UHGV virus genome: UHGV-0128973
Source: a virus
Strand: one strand, 5' to 3'
Length of the DNA: 64,000 bases
Shown in pieces: positions 3,301 through 29,085 of this stretch. The position numbers and the translations under genes are program-made. Under the pieces are notes generated by a model. That model had not been told where the DNA came from. It saw nothing but the letters and a program-made list of their open reading frames with translations, and ran no database searches. The first letter of the stretch is position 1. Each line of letters starts with the position of its first letter.

Positions 3301-3805
3301 ATACATCTATCATTTCCTTAGTAATAGCAGATACGCCAGCAGGGATATTCACCGTACAAACAAGCAGTTCTCCATCTCCTAACTGATATGAATCGGTATA
3401 GGTTCTGGCAACAAATTCAGCCGCATGAATATGTGACGCGGTATTAACCTGATAAGAATCTTCTCCAAGGAGGTATCTTCCCTTCAGCACAATTGCATAT
3501 TTCTTACCTGCGCTAAGTGCAAGAGAAATATCCTTACGCTGCTGAATAGTTACCTGGTAGAATTCACCAATATTCACTGACGCCGCGCCAGCGGTTTTAT
3601 CACCATCCACTGAGGTGATTAACAGGTTCATCCCACCGCCAGGCTTAGGAAAAAAACCGGCATAAAATCCAGGGTCAACAATTCCCCTGAATTTTCGGTT
3701 TAGCGCGGCTGACAGATATGGTTCGTGGTATTGCACATCAGCCACCAGAGCCAACGACTCGGGTGATGGGTAAGTAACCGATGTGACAACTGTAACGTCA
3801 TTCAT
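1..3805 (-). CDS. S: Tail fibre protein S. The N-terminus is complete; the C-terminal end lies beyond the left window edge (at least 1268 codons).
   Basis: The minus-strand frame is open from ATG 3805 (11 nt after the R stop, RBS AAGGAT) to position 1 with no stop, which explains its absence from the complete-ORF track. It begins MNDVTVVTSVTYPSPESL and carries fibre motifs ATPKAVK and GTPTAPTAAQGTN. It follows R-16 as in P1. Confidence 0.85.
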   Translation of the reverse strand, partial: MNDVTVVTSVTYPSPESLALVADVQYHEPYLSAALNRKFRGIVDPGFYAGFFPKPGGGMNLLITSVDGDKTAGAASVNIGEFYQVTIQQRKDISLALSAGKKYAIVLKGRYLLGEDSYQVNTASHIHAAEFVARTYTDSYQLGDGELLVCTVNIPAGVSAITKEMIDVSDRIDLAIGIEISDSVTSTRSDVAASSLAVKKAYDLAKSKYTAQDASTTQKGLVQLSSATNSDSETMAATPKAVKSVKELADTKAPIESPSLTGTPTAPTAAQGTNSTQIANTAFVKAAITALINGAPGTLDTLKEIAAAINNDPNFSTTINNALALKAPLASPALTGIPTAPTAAQGTNNTQIATTAYVRAAISALVGSSPEALDTLNELAAALGNDPNFATTMTNALAGKQPLDATLTALAGLATGANKLPYFTGTDTVSQTDLTSVGRDILAKTSTLAVIQYLGLREIGTSGEKIPLLSTANTWSSQQTFKGKTAFSAAATFSAGIAGAIEPEAIDGRTIDLNDLIIANTEAGSVKYYQCKTVAGGANITNKPDGVSGNFLVRVESIRKTTGSDYANMQTLINSDTKRIYVRFVVNGSWAAWSQVVVSGWGQDVSVKSLSAVALSGSLTGNASTATKLQTARTIGGVSFDGSANIDLPGVNKAGNQSTTGNAATATKLQTARTIGGVSFDGSANIDLPGVNTAGNQSTTGNAATATKLQTARTINGVKFDGSANISIPTIASRGRVTALTDKTQGASTGLQMYEAYNNSYPTTYGNVLHMKGASAAGEGELLIGWSGTSGAHAPVFIRSRRDNTDAAWSAWAQVYTSRDSIPGVNATGNQNTTGNAATATKLQTARTIGGVSFDGTANINLPGVNVAGNQNTTGNAATATKLQTARTINGVLFDGSKNIELTPRSIGTINSTTMSFSGGTGWFKLATVTMPQSSSVVYISLIGGSGYNVNSPMQAGISELVLRAGNGNPKGLTGALWRRTSVGFTNFAWVNTSGDTYDVYVEIGNYTTRVNIQWDYTSNASVTIHTSPSYTADKPTGLTDGTVYVIYSSHIKPTATDVGALPITGGNLNGGLTATGEIISKSANGLRIAYGNYGFFIRNDGSNTCFMLTNSGNSLGTYNNLRPLIINNANGAVTIGNGLTVTGGINGSLNGNAATATKLQTARTIGGVSFDGSANIDLPGVNKAGNQSTTGNAATATKLQTARTIGGVSFDGSANIDLPGVNKAGNQSTTGNAATATKLQTARTIGGVSFDGSANIDLPGVNKAGNQ
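1120..1335. repeat. Diverged array B of the same 40-aa tail-fibre repeat (2 copies).
   Basis: The minus strand encodes GNQNTTGNAATATKLQTARTIGGVSFDGTANINLPGVNVAGNQNTTGNAATATKLQTARTINGVLFDG. The protein repeat is conserved while the DNA has diverged. Confidence 0.7.
1600..1950. repeat. Tandem array C of the ~120-bp tail-fibre repeat (about 3 copies). It is near-identical in DNA to array A.
   Basis: Stretches such as gtgcgtgctgtttgcagttttgttgcagttgc...ggcaggtcgatattggcactaccatcgaa recur at 1663-1935 and match positions 1-350. Confidence 0.85.
2432..2457. other. cix/gix-like Cin/Gin-family recombination site marking the S constant/variable junction.
   Basis: The 26-bp sequence TTCTCTTAAACCAAGGTATTGGATAA resembles my recollection of the Mu gix site (TTCCTGTAAACCGAGGTTTTGGATAA). 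It lies in-frame in S about 456 codons from the start. Confidence 0.6.
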
Positions 3806-3816
3806 CAAGCATATCC

Positions 3817-4251
3817 TTATGCTGTAGTCGTGTTTATGGCCATAACTGCGGTATATGTTTTGCCCACATACAGCGAGTCTTCCTGGACACAAATAATGGC
3901 GATTGGCTTGTTCTCGTTATCCAGAACAACCAGAGTGTTGAATGGGTAGTTTTTCCCTTTCTGCAACTGGCTTTGATCAAGGTCCATTCGGACAGTAATT
4001 ATCCCGCCTGAGTAGGTTGGGACGAGGTTGATGGTGCAAAATTTACTGGTCAGTTCTGCCAGCTCGAAAGCCTTTGGCAGTTCTCCAATCTCATAAGTGC
4101 CATCTCCTTTCTTAGTAACCAGTGAACTGGTACCGAAAACGGCCTTGCTGATTAAAAATCGAGAGCCTTTGTTAATGGACGATTCAGCGCGCCGCTGATA
4201 GTAATAGTCCAACAACTGACTCTTATAGAGGTTTGTTGAGACGTCAGACAT
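3817..4251 (-). CDS. R: Tail fibre assembly/structure protein R (144 aa).
   Basis: Complete ORF directly upstream of S on the minus strand, in the P1 R position. Confidence 0.7.
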   Translation of the reverse strand: MSDVSTNLYKSQLLDYYYQRRAESSINKGSRFLISKAVFGTSSLVTKKGDGTYEIGELPKAFELAELTSKFCTINLVPTYSGGIITVRMDLDQSQLQKGKNYPFNTLVVLDNENKPIAIICVQEDSLYVGKTYTAVMAINTTTA

Positions 4252-4329
4252 GATTTTCCCTAATCAATGTTGTGAAGCCTCATTGTAAGAGAAGTAACTT
4301 GTCACCCCGCCCTGCGGACGGGGTGATTG

Positions 4330-5169
4330 TCAGGCGTCGCTATCCAGCAACAAATCATCTGCGCGTGTGCGATCAAACGTAGGTGTCGCTTTCACAATAG
4401 TGCCACCAGGCGTTGCGGTGATCGGGGCGCTAATCGACGTAACTCCAGTAAGCGAAGTTGTATCCGAAGTTTCAAACCAGCAGTACGCTTTTTCGGTATC
4501 AGAAATCTCGTTCAAAGTGATCATGTCGGCCTGTTCATTCACAACAACCGACAAATAGAGCGTAAGCCCATCAAACACTATATGCAGTGGCAGTAGAGGC
4601 TTTACGAACTGATTAAACTTTCTGAGAATTTCTTCTGTAATTGCGGACTGATCTATCGTGCCAGTAATACCCATTGTCCGGGCCAGGTCGTTTATGGGAA
4701 TACTGATCATCCCTCTGGAAGTCAGAAACATCTCACCGAATGTGCCGCCGGTAGTTTCCAGTGTGCTTTCTGGTATTAGAACTGTGCCATAGGGATGACG
4801 TTCAAGGTCCACCGGTGCATATATCGGATCCCATAAAACAGAAATACCATTAAATTCGCGGTAAATTGTCTGGTTTATAGGGCGTTCAGTCCCCTTAAAG
4901 TGAATCTCATCAAGCCGCTGTTGTAACAACATCGGAACGGAAGATGAGTTTGAGGTTCTGATAGTAAAGAACTGGCCAAGTTCATTTGTCCTGGTCTCCA
5001 GATCCTCCTTGCTCATGGAAAAAATAGACTTCCGGTTGGTAATTCGCTCCAACCATGGGTCAACAAAGGTGTCCATCATTGACTGAACCAAATCAGCCAA
5101 TGATTTATAGAGCAATGACTTTTGCTTAGCTGATGTAAGCCGATTATTAAACCAGGAACGTTGCATCAC
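4330..5169 (-). CDS. 16: Baseplate/tail protein gp16 (279 aa).
   Basis: Complete ORF whose start overlaps the bplA stop by 4 nt (translational coupling). It follows the P1 order bplA-16-R-S. Confidence 0.65.
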   Translation of the reverse strand: MMQRSWFNNRLTSAKQKSLLYKSLADLVQSMMDTFVDPWLERITNRKSIFSMSKEDLETRTNELGQFFTIRTSNSSSVPMLLQQRLDEIHFKGTERPINQTIYREFNGISVLWDPIYAPVDLERHPYGTVLIPESTLETTGGTFGEMFLTSRGMISIPINDLARTMGITGTIDQSAITEEILRKFNQFVKPLLPLHIVFDGLTLYLSVVVNEQADMITLNEISDTEKAYCWFETSDTTSLTGVTSISAPITATPGGTIVKATPTFDRTRADDLLLDSDA

Positions 5170-24018: not shown

Positions 24019-25020
24019 TTAAGGCTTCGGCTTTTTATCGAGGCTCTTTCTAAGGATATGCCCAATCATCCTGTCGAGTTCTTCCTGTAGCTCTTTTGAA
24101 AGTCGATTAAACTCATAAGAAAATGCACGGCCTTTCACGCGCTTCCTTGCAAAGCGATCCTTGTCCTCAAATTTCCATAATTCAGTAACTACGGACTTAT
24201 CTTTAGAACCTTTATCCGTGAGTAGTGAGGCTTCCTTTGTTATCAAGCGCAGGATTTTATTTTTAACTTCATCTTCGGCCATTTCTTCAATGGATAAGAT
24301 GTCGTTTATTTCCGGGGATATGTTTTGAATAAGCTGATCAAACTCTAAATTCTTGTTCCCCATTTCGTCGCCAACAGCACAAAGCGTTTTGTAGTCCGAA
24401 AAGGTTAATTCCGACTGCACAGGGAAAAGGGCGACTAATTCTTCCGGAGCACTCGCTGCCTGGAGAGCACGCGTGACTTTCGCCTGAGACAGCCCTTCCT
24501 TGGCTGCAATATCCTTCTGACTCATCCCATCATTTTTCATTCGCATTAAACGCAGACCTATTTCTCGAATGCTGTGCTGCAATGCTGTCTGAACGTCTTT
24601 CGCTAAATTTTGCGCTTCCTGAACGCTGATCTCCTGGTCCGTGACTAAAACCCGCAACCCTACGTTCTCTAAGATGGCAGAAGCTCGACGCCGGGAACCA
24701 TCCAAAATTTCAATTTTCCCTGTAGCCCGTCTAACACCTATTGCAGGGTAAAATTGCTGATGCTTAATAGTGCTTCGGATACTTTTTAATGATTTTGGCG
24801 TAAGAGATGCCTGGTCACGCCCGTTGTTATGCTGATCAACAAAGGTATCGCTTTCTACCTGGTTCGGAGGTATTACCTCTTCAATAAATGTGGCCTGGCG
24901 ACCAGTTGATAACTTGAATACCTGCTCGACTCGATCGCCAGAGGATGAAGAACTATCAAATCCGCTTAATATTGAAGGATTAAGGGTTCGCCCAATTGTT
25001 GGTCTGTTTTTCTTTGACAT
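24019..25020 (-). CDS. parB: Partition protein ParB (333 aa).
   Basis: A 333-aa ParB-type protein with an HTH (MSQKDIAAKEGLSQAKVTRAL) between parA and parS. The sequence is recognisably P1 ParB-like. Confidence 0.9.
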   Translation of the reverse strand: MSKKNRPTIGRTLNPSILSGFDSSSSSGDRVEQVFKLSTGRQATFIEEVIPPNQVESDTFVDQHNNGRDQASLTPKSLKSIRSTIKHQQFYPAIGVRRATGKIEILDGSRRRASAILENVGLRVLVTDQEISVQEAQNLAKDVQTALQHSIREIGLRLMRMKNDGMSQKDIAAKEGLSQAKVTRALQAASAPEELVALFPVQSELTFSDYKTLCAVGDEMGNKNLEFDQLIQNISPEINDILSIEEMAEDEVKNKILRLITKEASLLTDKGSKDKSVVTELWKFEDKDRFARKRVKGRAFSYEFNRLSKELQEELDRMIGHILRKSLDKKPKP

Positions 25021-25036: not shown

Positions 25037-26233
25037 TCAGTTAGATCTGATAAATTCAATACGGTCAAAAACTGCTTTAGCAAAATCTTCCGCAGCAATT
25101 CGCGCGTTCTTCAATGCATCAGCACTACCAACATACGTTGCCGGGTTAGCTGAAATAACAGTGTCAAAAGACTCGCCGCAGCGTTCAAAACCGTCAAGGC
25201 GAGGGAGGACAACATCAAGCATATCCCCACCGAACACTTCTTTAGCCAAGCTATGGCAATACTTATGGTCTGCCTTGTTACTCAACTTGGACATAAAACC
25301 AATGTTAGTTGCAAGCTGACACTCGCAGCCTTCATCCGAAATGAGTTTCACCAACTCAGGAAGACGGGCAACGTATTTAAGCGATGAGTGGAAATCAACC
25401 GTTGCAGGCGGCAGAGGTGTAAACAATATATTGGCCGAGGCCAAAGCATTTTTCAGGAAGGCGTCAAGGTGAGGACCACTATCAACGAGGATAAAGTCAT
25501 AATCGCTCTTCAGCTTATCAATCACATTTTCTTTCAGTACTGCATGGATGTTCTGACCCGGTAGATGCTCATTGCACAGCTCTCTCCAATCGGATGCAAT
25601 AAAGGCATCGTCAATCGACGCAGGCATAACGTCAACCCCAGGTACAACAGAAGGAACAATAAACTCCTCTAACAGCTCTTCACGGCTTACATTCTGCAAC
25701 ATAGCCTGTGCAGATGTTGCGTTTACGATACCAATAGAGTGTTTATGGCTTAAAAACATCGTTGCTGAAGATTGCGGATCAAGGTCAATAACCAGAATCC
25801 TTAAATCTTCCATCAGAAGATGAGGGTGAGCACGCATTGCATGCGCCAGAGAAACCGTCGATACAGTTTTTGACACACCGCCTTTAAGATTGGAGATGAA
25901 AATCACATACGCTTCGCTGTAGCGATCCCGGTATTTTGGCACTCCGCGATGTTCATATATGTCGATGATGTTCTGAATTGACATCGCATATTTCATTGAA
26001 GAGCCAGCAGGGCGTTTATCGAAAACATAACCCTTTTCTTCCATTTCACTTACGGCATAGTCAACGTTCGCACGAGTCAGTAGAGGCAATTTTGCCAGTG
26101 CCGCTTTCGCATAGACCTGGTAAAACTCGTTCGCGTGTAGCTCATCCTTTTGCAACTGTACTTGTTCAGTCAGAACATTGAGCATTCTATTTGCTCTTTG
26201 AGCAACCTTGTGAAGCTGGCTGGAATCACTCAT
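25037..26233 (-). CDS. parA: Partition ATPase ParA (398 aa).
   Basis: Deviant Walker A (SNLKGGVSKT) in a type Ia ParA with an N-terminal DNA-binding extension, located upstream of parB. Confidence 0.9.
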   Translation of the reverse strand: MSDSSQLHKVAQRANRMLNVLTEQVQLQKDELHANEFYQVYAKAALAKLPLLTRANVDYAVSEMEEKGYVFDKRPAGSSMKYAMSIQNIIDIYEHRGVPKYRDRYSEAYVIFISNLKGGVSKTVSTVSLAHAMRAHPHLLMEDLRILVIDLDPQSSATMFLSHKHSIGIVNATSAQAMLQNVSREELLEEFIVPSVVPGVDVMPASIDDAFIASDWRELCNEHLPGQNIHAVLKENVIDKLKSDYDFILVDSGPHLDAFLKNALASANILFTPLPPATVDFHSSLKYVARLPELVKLISDEGCECQLATNIGFMSKLSNKADHKYCHSLAKEVFGGDMLDVVLPRLDGFERCGESFDTVISANPATYVGSADALKNARIAAEDFAKAVFDRIEFIRSN

Positions 26234-26373
26234 CGAAAGTCATCCTTTATGCTGTATTTTTGAATTTAATTAAAAATGCTGCATAAAATAATAATGTATG
26301 CGTAGATGCTTGTACATAGCATTCTCTGCATGTTTGGTTCATTTTGCACGATTGAGAGTTACAAGGAGGGCAC

Positions 26374-26394
26374 AAAAAAGCCCCGTTCAGGGGC
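26374..26394 (-). terminator. Rho-independent terminator ending the two-gene cassette.
   Basis: The minus strand reads GCCCC-TGAAC-GGGGC followed by TTTTTTG, 8 nt after the stop of the 26402 ORF. Confidence 0.75.
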
Positions 26395-26401
26395 ATCAGT
26401 G

Positions 26402-26650
26402 TTATTTGCTAAGAGCAGCGAATAATCGTTCGAAATCGATAGTATCTATAGCACGCGTAAGCGCCGGAAGTTCAGCCTCAAAGTACCCATGTCGATCGTA
26501 AAAGAAGGGACCGAAGAGCGAGGCATGTTGGATTCTACTTCGCCCCAGCCCGGACACACAGTTAAGCCCATTACCGGCTAAAAGGCTAAAAAACTTCTCT
26601 GGATTATCGTGGTAAAGCTGGGAATCAATGGTGGCGGTTAACTCTTCCAT
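26402..26650 (-). CDS. Hypothetical protein (82 aa from ATG 26650; the GTG-extended ORF reaches 26662). It is the partner of the T5orf172-like gene.
   Basis: Complete ORF 21-33 nt downstream of the 175-aa gene and followed by a terminator. I recognise no motif in it. Confidence 0.5.
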   Translation of the reverse strand: MEELTATIDSQLYHDNPEKFFSLLAGNGLNCVSGLGRSRIQHASLFGPFFYDRHGYFEAELPALTRAIDTIDFERLFAALSK

Positions 26651-26683
26651 AGGGAAGCACACCCGCCCTGTATCCCAGGGATA

Positions 26684-27211
26684 TTAAGTCCGAAGCATAA
26701 ACATTGCTTTCAGCAATTCACATTGAGCGCGGATCGCGTCCGGTTCATAGCCAGATATGGAGACATAAGCCACGTCCCTCATTCCTGCGTCATCTTTGAA
26801 AGTCACGATAGAAGTAACATCCAGCTCTTTTTCGAAAGAGCAAGCAGCATCTACTGGACGCTGAAGTAAATCATTCGACTTAATGCGCTCGAGAATCCCT
26901 CCCCACATATCATTTAGATATTCGATATGAGCCAAAACCTTATCAAGACACTCTCGTGTAAACCATTCAGTATGCCCGCCACCGGCGCTTTTCTCCCACG
27001 GCGCATTCCAGGGGAAAAAGGTTGCGTGTAAAGCCCGCTCAAGATTAACCATTGCCAAACGCGTACCACGATAGACCCGTGAAAGCGCAAAATCGGGACT
27101 CACTTGTAGCCCTTTAAACCGTGCCAATGGACCACATGAAATGCCGATTTTAAAAGTATCTCCATTCTCCGGCACCAGAACGTAGAGGTAGTGTTGTTTC
27201 TCTTCTTGCAT
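26684..27211 (-). CDS. T5orf172 / GIY-YIG-superfamily-like protein (175 aa).
   Basis: The motifs YLYVL..FKIGIS..R...LE.ALH..F......GGHTEWF fit the T5orf172 (MUG113) domain pattern. A C-terminal domain of about 70 aa is unassigned. Confidence 0.6.
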   Translation of the reverse strand: MQEEKQHYLYVLVPENGDTFKIGISCGPLARFKGLQVSPDFALSRVYRGTRLAMVNLERALHATFFPWNAPWEKSAGGGHTEWFTRECLDKVLAHIEYLNDMWGGILERIKSNDLLQRPVDAACSFEKELDVTSIVTFKDDAGMRDVAYVSISGYEPDAIRAQCELLKAMFMLRT

Positions 27212-27243
27212 ATCAATACCACTGCTTGATGAGAACCGCGCAA

Positions 27244-27471
27244 ATGTTGACTATGCGCGATGTGACTACAGTCAAAAGTTGACTGTAGTCGATTTAACTC
27301 CACCAAAGATCGACTATGTAAGATATTGTCGGGAGAAACGTTGACTATACGCGATGAAATGACCCTAAAATCCATCTCAATAGCGACTTGCAGAATATTG
27401 ACGCCAGCAAAAATCCACCAGCGTCAACGAATGTCGCCTATAGTCAACTTCTCGCTATCGCATATAGTCAA
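27244..27471. repeat. RepA iteron cluster downstream of repA (incA-like control locus), with mixed orientations.
   Basis: GTTGACTAT(G/A)CGCGAT-type repeats occur at about 27246, 27278 and 27340 (forward) and 27431 and 27454 (reverse), plus the palindrome GACTACAGTCAA-AAG-TTGACTGTAGTC at 27264-27290. Confidence 0.75.
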
Positions 27472-27473
27472 TA

Positions 27474-28358
27474 TTATGGATTGCGCTTATGGATCTGGAA
27501 GCCGATTTTTCTGCCGTTTTTTATCTCTGAAAATTTAAGATATTCAATAGCTTCCAAATCTTTCATGGCTTTTCTGATAACGCTATTTTGCACGCTAACG
27601 GATGATTTGAGATTAAGCCTTGCTCTAAGGCGCTCAATGCTGACAGGTGCCGGGTTGGCGGGTAGAGCCTCAAAGAATGTATACAGCACCTTGGCCGTCT
27701 CTTTGCGCCCGAGCTTATCCAGCATCTTCAGCTTCAGGATTCGCTTATAGTCAACATAGTAAAGTTCAGATAGCTGTTTTTGCGGCTGGATCTCGATAAC
27801 ATCAAGCTCGGTATTCAGGCTGCTATATGCCAACAAGTTGACGTTAATGTTATTGAGATGACCTTTTGCCGCCGGGAAGCGGAATTTGACAACTGTCTGC
27901 TGAATGCGTGTCAGAGAGTCATCAATACTTTTACGGAACGCCTTTGAAAGGCGCTTACGTGGATAGCCGCATCGATCGGCAAACTCGGAGAATGGCAGGG
28001 TGATTATGCCGTCATCATCAGGAGCATAGTCAAACAACGCGGAGGTTATGCCCACCCACACCTTAAAATCAGTATCCATATCCAGGCGTGGACCATGAAT
28101 TTCAATTCCCTCATAGCCTTCCTGCTCAACAATTTTGAGGCTTGATAGTTCTTCGGTTGCGTTCGTTGTGTTTGTTGTAACTGACGATCCGCGACGTAGC
28201 GCCACATTGGTAGATTTTAAGGTTGGCACAAACACACCTAAGCGCAACAAAGCTATGGGTTGTATAGTGCTGTTGTTATTGGGCTTCAGGCTGTGGATTT
28301 CTCCTGTATTTCCTGCAACTTCTTCAACGCTAAGGAAGCCTTTACTTTCTTCCGGCAT
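27474..28358 (-). CDS. repA: Plasmid replication initiator RepA (294 aa), an iteron-binding Rep of the P1/F RepE-like family.
   Basis: Family-conserved blocks (QPIALLRLGVFVP, ITGPRLDMDTDFK-like HGPRLDMDTDFKVW) and iterons on both sides of the gene. Confidence 0.85.
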   Translation of the reverse strand: MPEESKGFLSVEEVAGNTGEIHSLKPNNNSTIQPIALLRLGVFVPTLKSTNVALRRGSSVTTNTTNATEELSSLKIVEQEGYEGIEIHGPRLDMDTDFKVWVGITSALFDYAPDDDGIITLPFSEFADRCGYPRKRLSKAFRKSIDDSLTRIQQTVVKFRFPAAKGHLNNINVNLLAYSSLNTELDVIEIQPQKQLSELYYVDYKRILKLKMLDKLGRKETAKVLYTFFEALPANPAPVSIERLRARLNLKSSVSVQNSVIRKAMKDLEAIEYLKFSEIKNGRKIGFQIHKRNP

Positions 28359-28406
28359 CGTGGTTTCTCCATGTGTGGCGCGGCCTGGCGTTAATTTAGA
28401 TGACTG

Positions 28407-28650
28407 TTATCAACAGCTGTGAATATTCAGGCTCTAAAATCGCGTACAGTCAACGTTTCTGTCGCGTATAGTCAACAATAAATCGCGTGCAGTCAACATA
28501 AAATCGCACACAGTCAACATAAAATCGCGTATAGTCAATGTTGATCCCGTTTCAGGCCATGAACGGCGCGGCTTACAGCGATCCGGGATCTTCTTTGGAT
28601 CTTCCTAGGTTCTCTTTGGGATCTGTTTATTGGATCTATGCTGTGGATAA
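28407..28650. other. Plasmid origin (oriR-like): DnaA boxes, five iterons and a GATC cluster.
   Basis: TTATCAACA at 28407 and TGTGGATAA at 28642 are DnaA boxes. Six GATC sites lie between 28543 and 28636, mostly as (T/G)GGATCT. Confidence 0.7.
28436..28539 (+). repeat. Five direct origin iterons (incC-like) upstream of repA.
   Basis: AAAATCGCGT(A/G)(C/T)AGTCAAC repeats at about 21-22 bp spacing: 28436, 28458, 28479, 28500 and 28521. Confidence 0.85.
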
Positions 28651-28692
28651 GTTGAATAAACCGGCCAACATAGCCGGTTGGAAGGAAGGGTA

Positions 28693-29085
28693 TTATTCTA
28701 CGCTTTCGATAAGAAGACCATGTTCATAACATTTAAGCTCATCGCCTTCGTACAGGAATTGGTATCCAATACCACCATATTCAGGCACATTAGGGAATAA
28801 CTCATCACTTACCGAAGAACAAATCACACCAATGCAGCGATCAACGCCTTCTCGTTCTTCAGTGCTGAAAAAATCCTCTTCGGTAAGAACATGAGTACAT
28901 TGCTCATCAGCATAGGTCGGAAATACATGCTCGATGCAATCCGGGTGTTTTAAACCAAGCTGATCGGCAAGCTCGAAAGCATGACGGTATTGTTCAGATC
29001 CTGGCTTGCCAACAGTGATGTGCTCAATTTTGTAGATTGAAGTCGCTTTGTTGATAGTTTGCTTTACTGTTACTTTATCAGACAT
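28693..29085 (-). CDS. upfA: Hypothetical protein (130 aa).
   Basis: Complete ORF in the position of P1 upfA next to oriR. No motif recognised. Confidence 0.45.
   Translation of the reverse strand: MSDKVTVKQTINKATSIYKIEHITVGKPGSEQYRHAFELADQLGLKHPDCIEHVFPTYADEQCTHVLTEEDFFSTEEREGVDRCIGVICSSVSDELFPNVPEYGGIGYQFLYEGDELKCYEHGLLIESVE

Follow-up and report, generated by a model that had tools for sequence, protein, structure and literature searches.

In the 64,000-nucleotide stretch of virus genome UHGV-0128973 analysed here (the window), the plasmid-maintenance part of a P1-like phage-plasmid carries a gene for a predicted nuclease, termed X, between the replication initiator gene repA and the partition gene parA. 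A sequence-only reading of this DNA had described a compact minus-strand operon at this place, made up of a T5orf172/GIY-YIG-like gene and a small partner. The locus instead holds one ancestral gene of 810 nt and 269 codons, 26402-27211 on the minus strand, interrupted by one in-frame stop; a single nonsense nucleotide change made the apparent two-gene operon. The gene and its parts are, in window coordinates:

26402-27211, minus strand: ancestral single gene X, a predicted T5orf172 nuclease with a lineage-specific C-terminal region; intact coding sequence (CDS) in RCS47 and MH422554
26684-27211, minus strand: N-terminal fragment of 175 aa from the list of open reading frames (ORFs), still translatable, with the complete predicted nuclease domain (~aa 1-104) and the beginning of the C-terminal region
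26957-27190, minus strand: predicted T5orf172 (GIY-YIG superfamily) catalytic domain, residues 8-85
26684-26686, minus strand: premature TAA stop, Lys176 to stop, through a single-base change at 26686, from comparison with four relatives
26402-26662, minus strand: the "small partner" ORF, a remnant for ancestral residues 184-269 including a predicted winged-helix motif, in the same frame as the upstream ORF

The upstream ORF was described correctly, with its 175 codons and the motifs YLYVL, FKIGIS, LERALH and GGHTEWF. The downstream ORF exists as well (86 aa from a GTG at 26662, 82 aa from an ATG at 26650), but it is the C-terminal third of the 269-aa protein, cut off by K176*, rather than a partner gene. 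The start positions 27211 and 26662 differ by 549, that is 3 x 183, and both ORFs therefore lie in one frame, with a single TAA at 26684-26686 as their sole separator. In a five-way DNA alignment, plus-strand position 26686 is A in the window and T in RCS47, SJ46, MH422554 and vB_EcoM-673R5, which corresponds on the coding strand to an A-to-T change turning AAA (Lys176) into TAA. When read through, the 269 codons of the window match residue for residue the RCS47 CDS YP_009624912.1, annotated as "GIY-YIG nuclease family protein", and MH422554 contains an intact ORF matching the same translation. Cluster P0001 likewise has 269 aa (1241 member sequences), and the PHROG profile phrog_2876, with 269 positions, is matched at E = 1e-193. 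The 21-33 nt that had been taken for an intergenic gap code for K-Y-P-W-D, with K176 as first residue, and these residues are invariant in the homologue P0004, which is only 44% identical overall.

Alleles at codon 176 were counted in PLSDB using 55-mers centred on 26686, such that each 28-nt megablast seed had to include that base. AAA was found in 381 of the 384 typed records and TAA in three (NZ_CP043337.1, NZ_MN510446.1 and NZ_CP122822.1), the first of which is 100% identical to the window over 26330-27300. Occurrence in three records speaks for TAA being a real allele rather than a sequencing error, although a rare one. NZ_CP043337.1, a P1-like plasmid, has its replicon typed as "IncHI1B" by MOB-suite.

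The RefSeq Prokaryotic Genome Annotation Pipeline (PGAP) splits the allele in NZ_CP043337.1 (L061, 61355-62164) into WP_001154681.1, a 175-aa GIY-YIG protein, and the 82-aa hypothetical protein WP_001426347.1, and does not call it a pseudogene. Those two CDS calls speak for a genuine two-gene system, in which a T5orf172 effector would act with a small partner protein, yet we give this scheme hardly any credence. The ORFs share a frame and are parted by a stop that arose from a single-nucleotide polymorphism, 381 of 384 plasmids have one ORF, a conserved motif is encoded across the supposed gap, the searches turned up no genuine stand-alone homologue of the small ORF, and direct reading revealed no good ribosome-binding site upstream of GTG 26662 or ATG 26650. 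The small ORF was also considered as an independent family and rejected as such: its only free-standing homologue, P0010 (87 aa), stems from a long-read assembly with pervasive frameshifts, in which every gene is fragmented. We conclude that 26402-27211 is one gene for a 269-aa protein, not two: the downstream ORF of 82-86 codons is no partner gene but the 3' end of X, orphaned by the stop.

The 175-aa product retains the nuclease domain but is without the final 93 residues, among them those of the predicted winged-helix motif. As a helix-helix-helix-hairpin motif is predicted at residues 188-231, K176* separates this motif from the nuclease, and the X system is most likely inactive in this window.

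The nuclease assignment was examined by profile, fold and residue conservation. The Pfam model T5orf172 (PF10544) matches the window ORF at residues 8-85, scoring 28.7 bits where the cut-off is 20 (E = 2e-6), and it matches 75 of the 77 relatives in the alignment. X is matched by the T5orf172 and MUG113 subfamily models only, and not by the Pfam GIY-YIG model itself. Over the 77 sequences, Y10, K21, G23, R31, E58 and E82 are invariant, and H62, G79, W83 and F84 nearly so. In the four full-length lineages all of these are invariant apart from E58, for which one lineage has Asp, and every one of them falls within the 175-aa fragment. In an AlphaFold2 model built from the 77-sequence alignment (mean predicted local distance difference test score 82, predicted template modelling score 0.66), residues 1-104 form the GIY-YIG/T5orf172 domain with the alpha/beta fold of GIY-YIG proteins, and fold matches of this domain in BFVD comprise many phage T5orf172 proteins, including ICP1 ORF88 (Odn). 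Since profile, fold and conserved residues agree, it is well supported that the N-terminal ~100 residues are a predicted endonuclease domain of the T5orf172 type (GIY-YIG superfamily), as had been proposed, in which the catalytic Tyr, Lys-x-Gly, Arg and Glu are all present.

In the same model, the predicted winged-helix motif of the C-terminal region consists of helices 188-194, 198-202 and 204-211, followed by a beta hairpin at 215-231, and the nearest fold of the region is WH1, the dimerisation domain of Rep_3 initiators. The C-terminal region has an isoelectric point (pI) of 5.1-5.2 in four lineages and the whole protein one of ~5.5, compared with 9.3-9.4 for RepA and 9.2-9.4 for iteron-binding domains. 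A nuclease that binds specific DNA sequences would not usually be so acidic, which hints at contact with another protein, possibly RepA with its basic pI of 9.3.

X lies within a replicon module that takes the place of the corresponding P1 DNA. The surrounding features are:

24019-25020, minus strand: parB
25037-26233, minus strand: parA
26288-26316, minus strand: par promoter (Ppar) from a promoter scan, TGTACA-17-TATTAT, in P1-homologous DNA and the counterpart of the annotated P1 Ppar
26336-28564: replicon module of 2229 bp, in place of P1 61316-62815, delimited by the breaks in P1 homology
26374-26394, minus strand: intrinsic terminator closing X, or possibly a repA-X transcript, ahead of Ppar; stem GCCCC-TGAAC-GGGGC at 26380-26394, then T6
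27244-27474: array of incA-like iterons between the stop of repA and the start of X
27245-27246: site at which the window is without one 30-bp iteron unit of most relatives
27264-27290: perfect palindrome with 12-nt arms, 27264-27275 and 27279-27290, and two iteron cores, GACTACAGTCAA and TTGACTGTAGTC
27474-28358, minus strand: repA of the p0111/SJ46 type, Rep_3 family, 42% identical to P1 RepA
28440-28541: five origin iterons with 21-22-bp spacing
28693-29085, minus strand: upfA-like gene

The module thus contains, in order, origin iterons, repA, incA-like iterons, X and the terminator, and is followed by Ppar-parA-parB. P1 (NC_005856) is 98.9% identical to the window up to 26335 and 94.7% from 28565 on. 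A RepA of this type has been described before, likewise with 42% identity to P1 RepA (PMC5241659), and repA' (p0111) together with an unknown gene has been reported to replace repA (IncY) (PMC9603915). The P1 IncY replicon resembles this module in having five origin iterons, a Rep_3-type repA, downstream control iterons and a par operon, but its RepA is only 42% identical and its iteron sequence is distinct. P1 further has nine incA iterons and a ~190-bp non-coding spacer, where this module has 5-6 iterons, X and the terminator. As the sequence-only reading had supposed, P1 has no gene between incA and Ppar: the spacer extends from the Ppar -35 box (61296) to iteron 1 (61487), and blastx of these 190 bp against all X proteins gave nothing better than E = 3, so that no remnant of X was detected there.

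Among PLSDB records, 776 carry the P1 capsid gene, 401 this module and 374 the IncY repA/incA; given 401 and 374 against 776, two states cover nearly all P1-like PLSDB records. Every PLSDB record with the p0111-type module carries X (401 matched over the whole region, 390 at >=80% coverage). As X lies within the 2229-bp module that replaces P1's, comparison at this level indicates that it is part of an alternative p0111/SJ46-type replicon and not a free insertion. The proposed insertion into the P1 incA-par gap is thus right in that the gene is absent from P1, but X belongs to a swapped 2.2-kb replicon module. A predicted, uncharacterised T5orf172 nuclease is a fixed component of the p0111-type replicon, present in about half of P1-like phage-plasmids. 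A separate backbone carrying the module was sought as well and could not be defined, the par flank being 98-99.8% identical in P1 and p0111-type elements.

The X stop codon lies 67 nt from the end of P1 homology (26335), so that X adjoins a recombination boundary, between repA/incA and parA. The right module boundary falls inside oriR, just past the iterons (window 28565-28660 versus P1 62816-62929); the stretch beside it, in which Dam GATC sites and a DnaA box are annotated in P1, is common to P1, while iterons and repA are swapped. Base composition (GC ~0.47 in X, 0.42-0.48 in the flanks) does not indicate a foreign origin, and an Rfam scan of 26000-28800 found no non-coding RNA.

Database searches for full-length X yielded four sequence types only, and one species-representative genome carries it. 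Besides the window type, these are P0004, P0009 and P0011, with 44%, 28% and 25% identity to X, each located between a Rep_3-type repA and parA in one of three diverged P1-like lineages. Their contigs keep the P1 gene order (dmt, rdgC, PAAR, etc., then repA, X, parA, parB, gp23), and none of the three lineages was found in PLSDB. In all of them (L006, L007 and L009) the control iterons reach the X start codon, each lineage having its own iteron type, with three iteron types over the four lineages. The locus L007:4648-6882 encodes a RepA 83% identical to P1 RepA, has P1-type iterons (ATGTGTGCTGGAGGGA) and harbours, flanked by incA and parA, the X homologue P0009 (293 aa). As this locus with a P1-type RepA has X, while P1 has neither gene nor remnant, P1's own lineage has probably lost X. 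Judged by these homologues, X did not arrive recently but has long occupied the repA-parA slot, and is missing from P1's lineage. A cassette in a variable spot does not agree with this, as there are only two states in PLSDB and diverged homologues sit in the same slot in three other lineages. It also brings X close to conserved backbone, which the sequence-only reading had named as speaking against its cassette: P1 is without the gene, but relatives carry it in this slot.

The earlier proposal of an uncharacterised defence system can be weighed on the same data. The plasmid-maintenance region of P1 is expressed in lysogens, and a gene located there, as X is, would be suitably placed for a single-gene nuclease by which the plasmid prophage guards its lysogen against unrelated phages; the rapid evolution of X would suit an arms race, and P0013, a distant relative of its N-domain, lies beside WYL, Mrr_cat and Hypoth_Ymh genes. 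Against this stand the searches for known systems, with 0 PADLOC families at E <= 1 for P0001, P0004, P0009 and P0011, and no NCBIfam match for X, as well as the distribution of full-length homologues, which are confined to the repA-parA slot of P1-like elements, with none in defence islands. We regard a role in anti-phage defence as quite improbable. P0013 itself (291 aa; L010:6001-6876) is chromosomal, among WYL/WCX, Mrr_cat plus zinc-ribbon and Hypoth_Ymh genes, a neighbourhood that resembles a defence island.

How X might be expressed was approached through the features on either side of the gene. The terminator recognised previously at 26374-26394 was confirmed as a hairpin followed by T6, with a folding energy of -11.9 kcal/mol (z = -2.9) that none of 200 shuffled sequences equalled. 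RepA-type iterons indeed occupy the upstream space, with five array copies, three of them in the opposite orientation to the origin copies (27244-27261, 27278-27295 and 27340-27355), the others at 27434-27450 and 27458-27474. A further iteron-like sequence, TCGCTTATAGTCAACAT, lies at 27741-27757 inside the repA coding region; it is 88% identical to the reference copy and has the orientation of the origin iterons. The short iteron array of the window is common to 6 of 44 IMG/VR loci (L014-L017, L028 and L032), and the 30-bp unit difference is a copy-number polymorphism of control iterons directly upstream of the nuclease gene. The palindrome at 27264-27290 is perfect, as had been noted, but was rejected as a conserved operator, no comparably tight palindrome being present upstream of X in L006, L007 or L009.

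A sigma-70 scan of the minus strand from the repA stop to the X start found no promoter-like site and no terminator-like site, manual reading of 27212-27340 yielded only poor hexamers as an X promoter, and the last iteron lies ~20-33 nt from the X start codon in every lineage. Lacking a promoter-like site of its own, and with iterons next to its start codon, X probably owes its transcription either to repA read-through or to a promoter that lies among the iterons and can be occluded by RepA. The lack of a minus-strand sigma-70-like site between repA and X makes a coupling of X expression to repA or RepA plausible, as the sequence-only reading had suggested for RepA.

This arrangement invites the view that X is an accessory of its own replicon, which would dock through its acidic WH1-like domain on RepA or on complexes bound to iterons, influencing initiation, handcuffing or copy number, or processing intermediates of replication. 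In four lineages and with three iteron types, the gene always stands downstream of repA, with the incA iterons directly before it; the repA-X interval is without a terminator or promoter-like site; the nearest fold of the C-terminal region is the Rep_3 dimerisation domain; and an acidic X (pI 5.5) and a basic RepA (pI 9.3) would suit protein-protein contact. A precedent is CapR, a domesticated T5orf172 homing gene (PMC10448857). However, ~20% of X copies are broken where repA is intact and the replicon evidently working, the IncY replicon works without X, the C-terminal region is diverged to a degree unexpected for a partner of the conserved RepA (33% identity where RepA has 84%), and the catalytic residues are still conserved. 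A role in the replication of its own plasmid is therefore improbable in our judgement.

Selection on X was assessed in 44 IMG/VR loci (39 for parA). Intact copies make up 35 of the 44 for X, 43 of 44 for repA and 38 of 39 for parA. Non-synonymous, synonymous and nonsense changes number 34, 31 and 3 in X, 4, 48 and 0 in repA and 1, 50 and 0 in parA, giving ratios of non-synonymous to synonymous polymorphism (pN/pS) of 0.32, 0.02 and 0.01, respectively; the ratio is similar in both halves of X. The nine non-intact copies comprise S112* in five loci (L035-L039, codon 112), the SJ46 allele Q228* (L031, codon 228), W68* (L050, codon 68), a 229-bp internal deletion (L053, nt 295-523) and one contig-end truncation (L055). 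These amount to at least four independent inactivating lesions in 44 loci, and K176* of the window and the frameshifts of vB_EcoM-673R5 are two more. Cluster P0003, with 229 member sequences of 168 aa, starts at Met102, which suggests that public genomes, too, commonly have X disrupted in its N-terminal part. From the window type to L006, identity is 44% for X, 84% for RepA and 89% for ParA. Given a pN/pS of 0.32 next to 0.01-0.02 for repA and parA, together with the broken copies, X is on these comparisons under purifying selection far weaker than that on its neighbours, fast-diverging and repeatedly lost.

The same figures bear on the idea that X is a dispensable passenger in slow decay, a former homing or nuclease gene hitch-hiking with the module, for which K176* would be one more step of loss. 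Disruption of 9 of 44 copies by at least four independent lesions beside near-complete retention of repA and parA, a pN/pS 15-30x that of the neighbours, and the fact that P1 and 374 IncY plasmids manage without X are all as expected of a passenger. Yet 0.32 is still well under 1 in both domains, a full-length ORF and the catalytic residues have been kept in four lineages down to 25% identity, and Lys176 is kept in 381 of 384 typed plasmids. We consider simple decay unlikely, though it deserves to be taken seriously.

Several known systems share features with X. Odn (Gp88) of the Vibrio phage ICP1 combines a T5orf172 with a RepA_N domain and cuts the iterons of the origin of PLE, an element akin to phage-inducible chromosomal islands (PMC8263062); further T5orf172-RepA_N proteins are ICP1 gp5, which is frameshifted in more than half of isolates, and those of coliphages Inny, Muut and Mt1B1_P17 (PMC10448857). 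In X as in Odn, a T5orf172 domain is joined to a region resembling a replication-initiator domain, and like the Odn group X is accessory, often broken (gp5 in more than half of isolates, X in 9 of 44 loci) and linked to replicon-module swapping. It differs in that its C-terminus is acidic, in its reversed domain order, with the nuclease N-terminal, and in its location inside a plasmid replicon beside its own repA, where Odn belongs to a lytic phage fighting a satellite. Odn-type proteins are recognised by a second domain with sequence homology to an initiator DNA-binding domain, and hhalign, Pfam and PDB sequence searches found no such homology in X.

The free-standing T5orf172 homing genes of ICP1, T5-like and other phages have the same Pfam domain and catalytic residues as X (PMC10448857). 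Such genes have been reported at genetic-exchange boundaries, and fast divergence and repeated loss, as in X, have been reported for T5orf172 homing and Odn-like genes (PMC10448857). X resembles them in lying next to essential genes at a genetic-exchange boundary and in its instability by stops, frameshifts and in-frame deletions, but is fixed in one replicon type and not sporadic. An empty-site allele differing only by X was not found; P1, which is without X, differs in its whole repA and iteron module and not by X alone.

Nuclease and initiator domains are also fused among the nearest relatives of the X nuclease domain. In L060:3617-6293, part of an unrelated 58.9-kb metagenomic scaffold, four 32-bp iterons and a Rep_3 gene (3803-4981) are followed directly by P0045, an uncharacterised metagenomic protein of 430 aa with T5orf172, Rep3_N and Rep3_C, both Rep3 domains scoring above threshold; P0017 is a second T5orf172-Rep_3 fusion among these relatives. 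The C-terminal 255 residues of P0045 are 47% identical to the DNA-binding half of the neighbouring Rep and have a pI of 9.2, and by its domains P0045 looks like an "initiator-mimic nuclease" of the Odn kind, encoded next to the initiator of its own replicon. It is similar to X in its N-terminal T5orf172 of the same clade and in its position directly downstream of an iteron-type rep, whereas its C-terminus, a bona fide and basic Rep3_N plus Rep3_C, contrasts with the shorter, acidic and not alignable one of X. As X cannot be aligned to the Rep part of P0045, its membership in the fusion class is not established. The order "rep, then nuclease", as read from the gene arrangement, recurs in this unrelated element. 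The GIY-YIG homing endonucleases I-TevI and SegA-G of phage T4, and SLX1, likewise have the nuclease first and a targeting region second, but X is without the zinc-finger and helix-turn-helix DNA-binding domain of the I-TevI type. SLX1, a structure-specific nuclease, requires its partner SLX4.

Taken together, we lean towards the explanation, with modest confidence, that X is a replicon-linked T5orf172 nuclease for conflict or homing between related elements, inactivated in this copy. A gene for conflict is suggested by the fast divergence, the pN/pS of 0.32, the repeated loss and the position at a recombination boundary. Intact X would then probably be a targeted DNA endonuclease acting in conflict between related mobile elements. 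It may be homing-type or Odn-like, cutting the DNA of elements without its module and so favouring inheritance of the linked replicon. The fast-evolving WH1-like C-terminal region would supply the targeting, either through DNA binding or, as its acidity would suggest, through docking on a protein, for instance an initiator; initiator targeting is brought to mind by the T5orf172-Rep_3 fusions among the nearest nuclease-domain relatives and by the precedent of Odn.

Several observations weigh against this explanation. A pN/pS of 0.32 with ~20% broken copies also fits a dispensable gene drifting towards loss, and X is fixed in the p0111-type population and broadly co-diverges with RepA, rather than being sporadic like free-standing homing genes. 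Sequence homology of the C-terminal region to initiators was not found by hhalign (probability 0.2% versus five P1-family RepAs, 0.1% versus the fusion P0045), and Pfam (E <= 10) and PDB sequence searches with the region came back empty. Its acidity makes it a poor fit to a classical iteron- or DNA-binding domain, and the empty PADLOC result for all four lineages counts here as well.

A wider version of the conflict reading would make X an initiator-mimicking or initiator-docking nuclease in a plasmid replicon, whose WH1-like domain would direct it to the iteron/Rep complexes of rivals (e.g. IncY), so that cleavage would destroy the rival or convert it to the p0111 module. Conversion could proceed via repair from the flanking 95-99% identical DNA. 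We hold this version to be doubtful. If true, X would be a replicon-level gene drive or incompatibility weapon, which could help explain the ~50:50 split of P1-like phage-plasmids into two replicon types with sharp module boundaries, and the pair of rep and T5orf172-Rep_3 genes in L060 would represent the same strategy a second time, in a form recognisable from sequence. Were X to act on rival replicons, the Odn principle would extend from phage-satellite conflict to plasmid replicon competition, with a bearing on how replicon modules are exchanged. P1-like phage-plasmids have been linked to the spread of genes for extended-spectrum beta-lactamases (ESBLs) (PMC9603915), and the records with the module include many clinical and farm-animal isolates.

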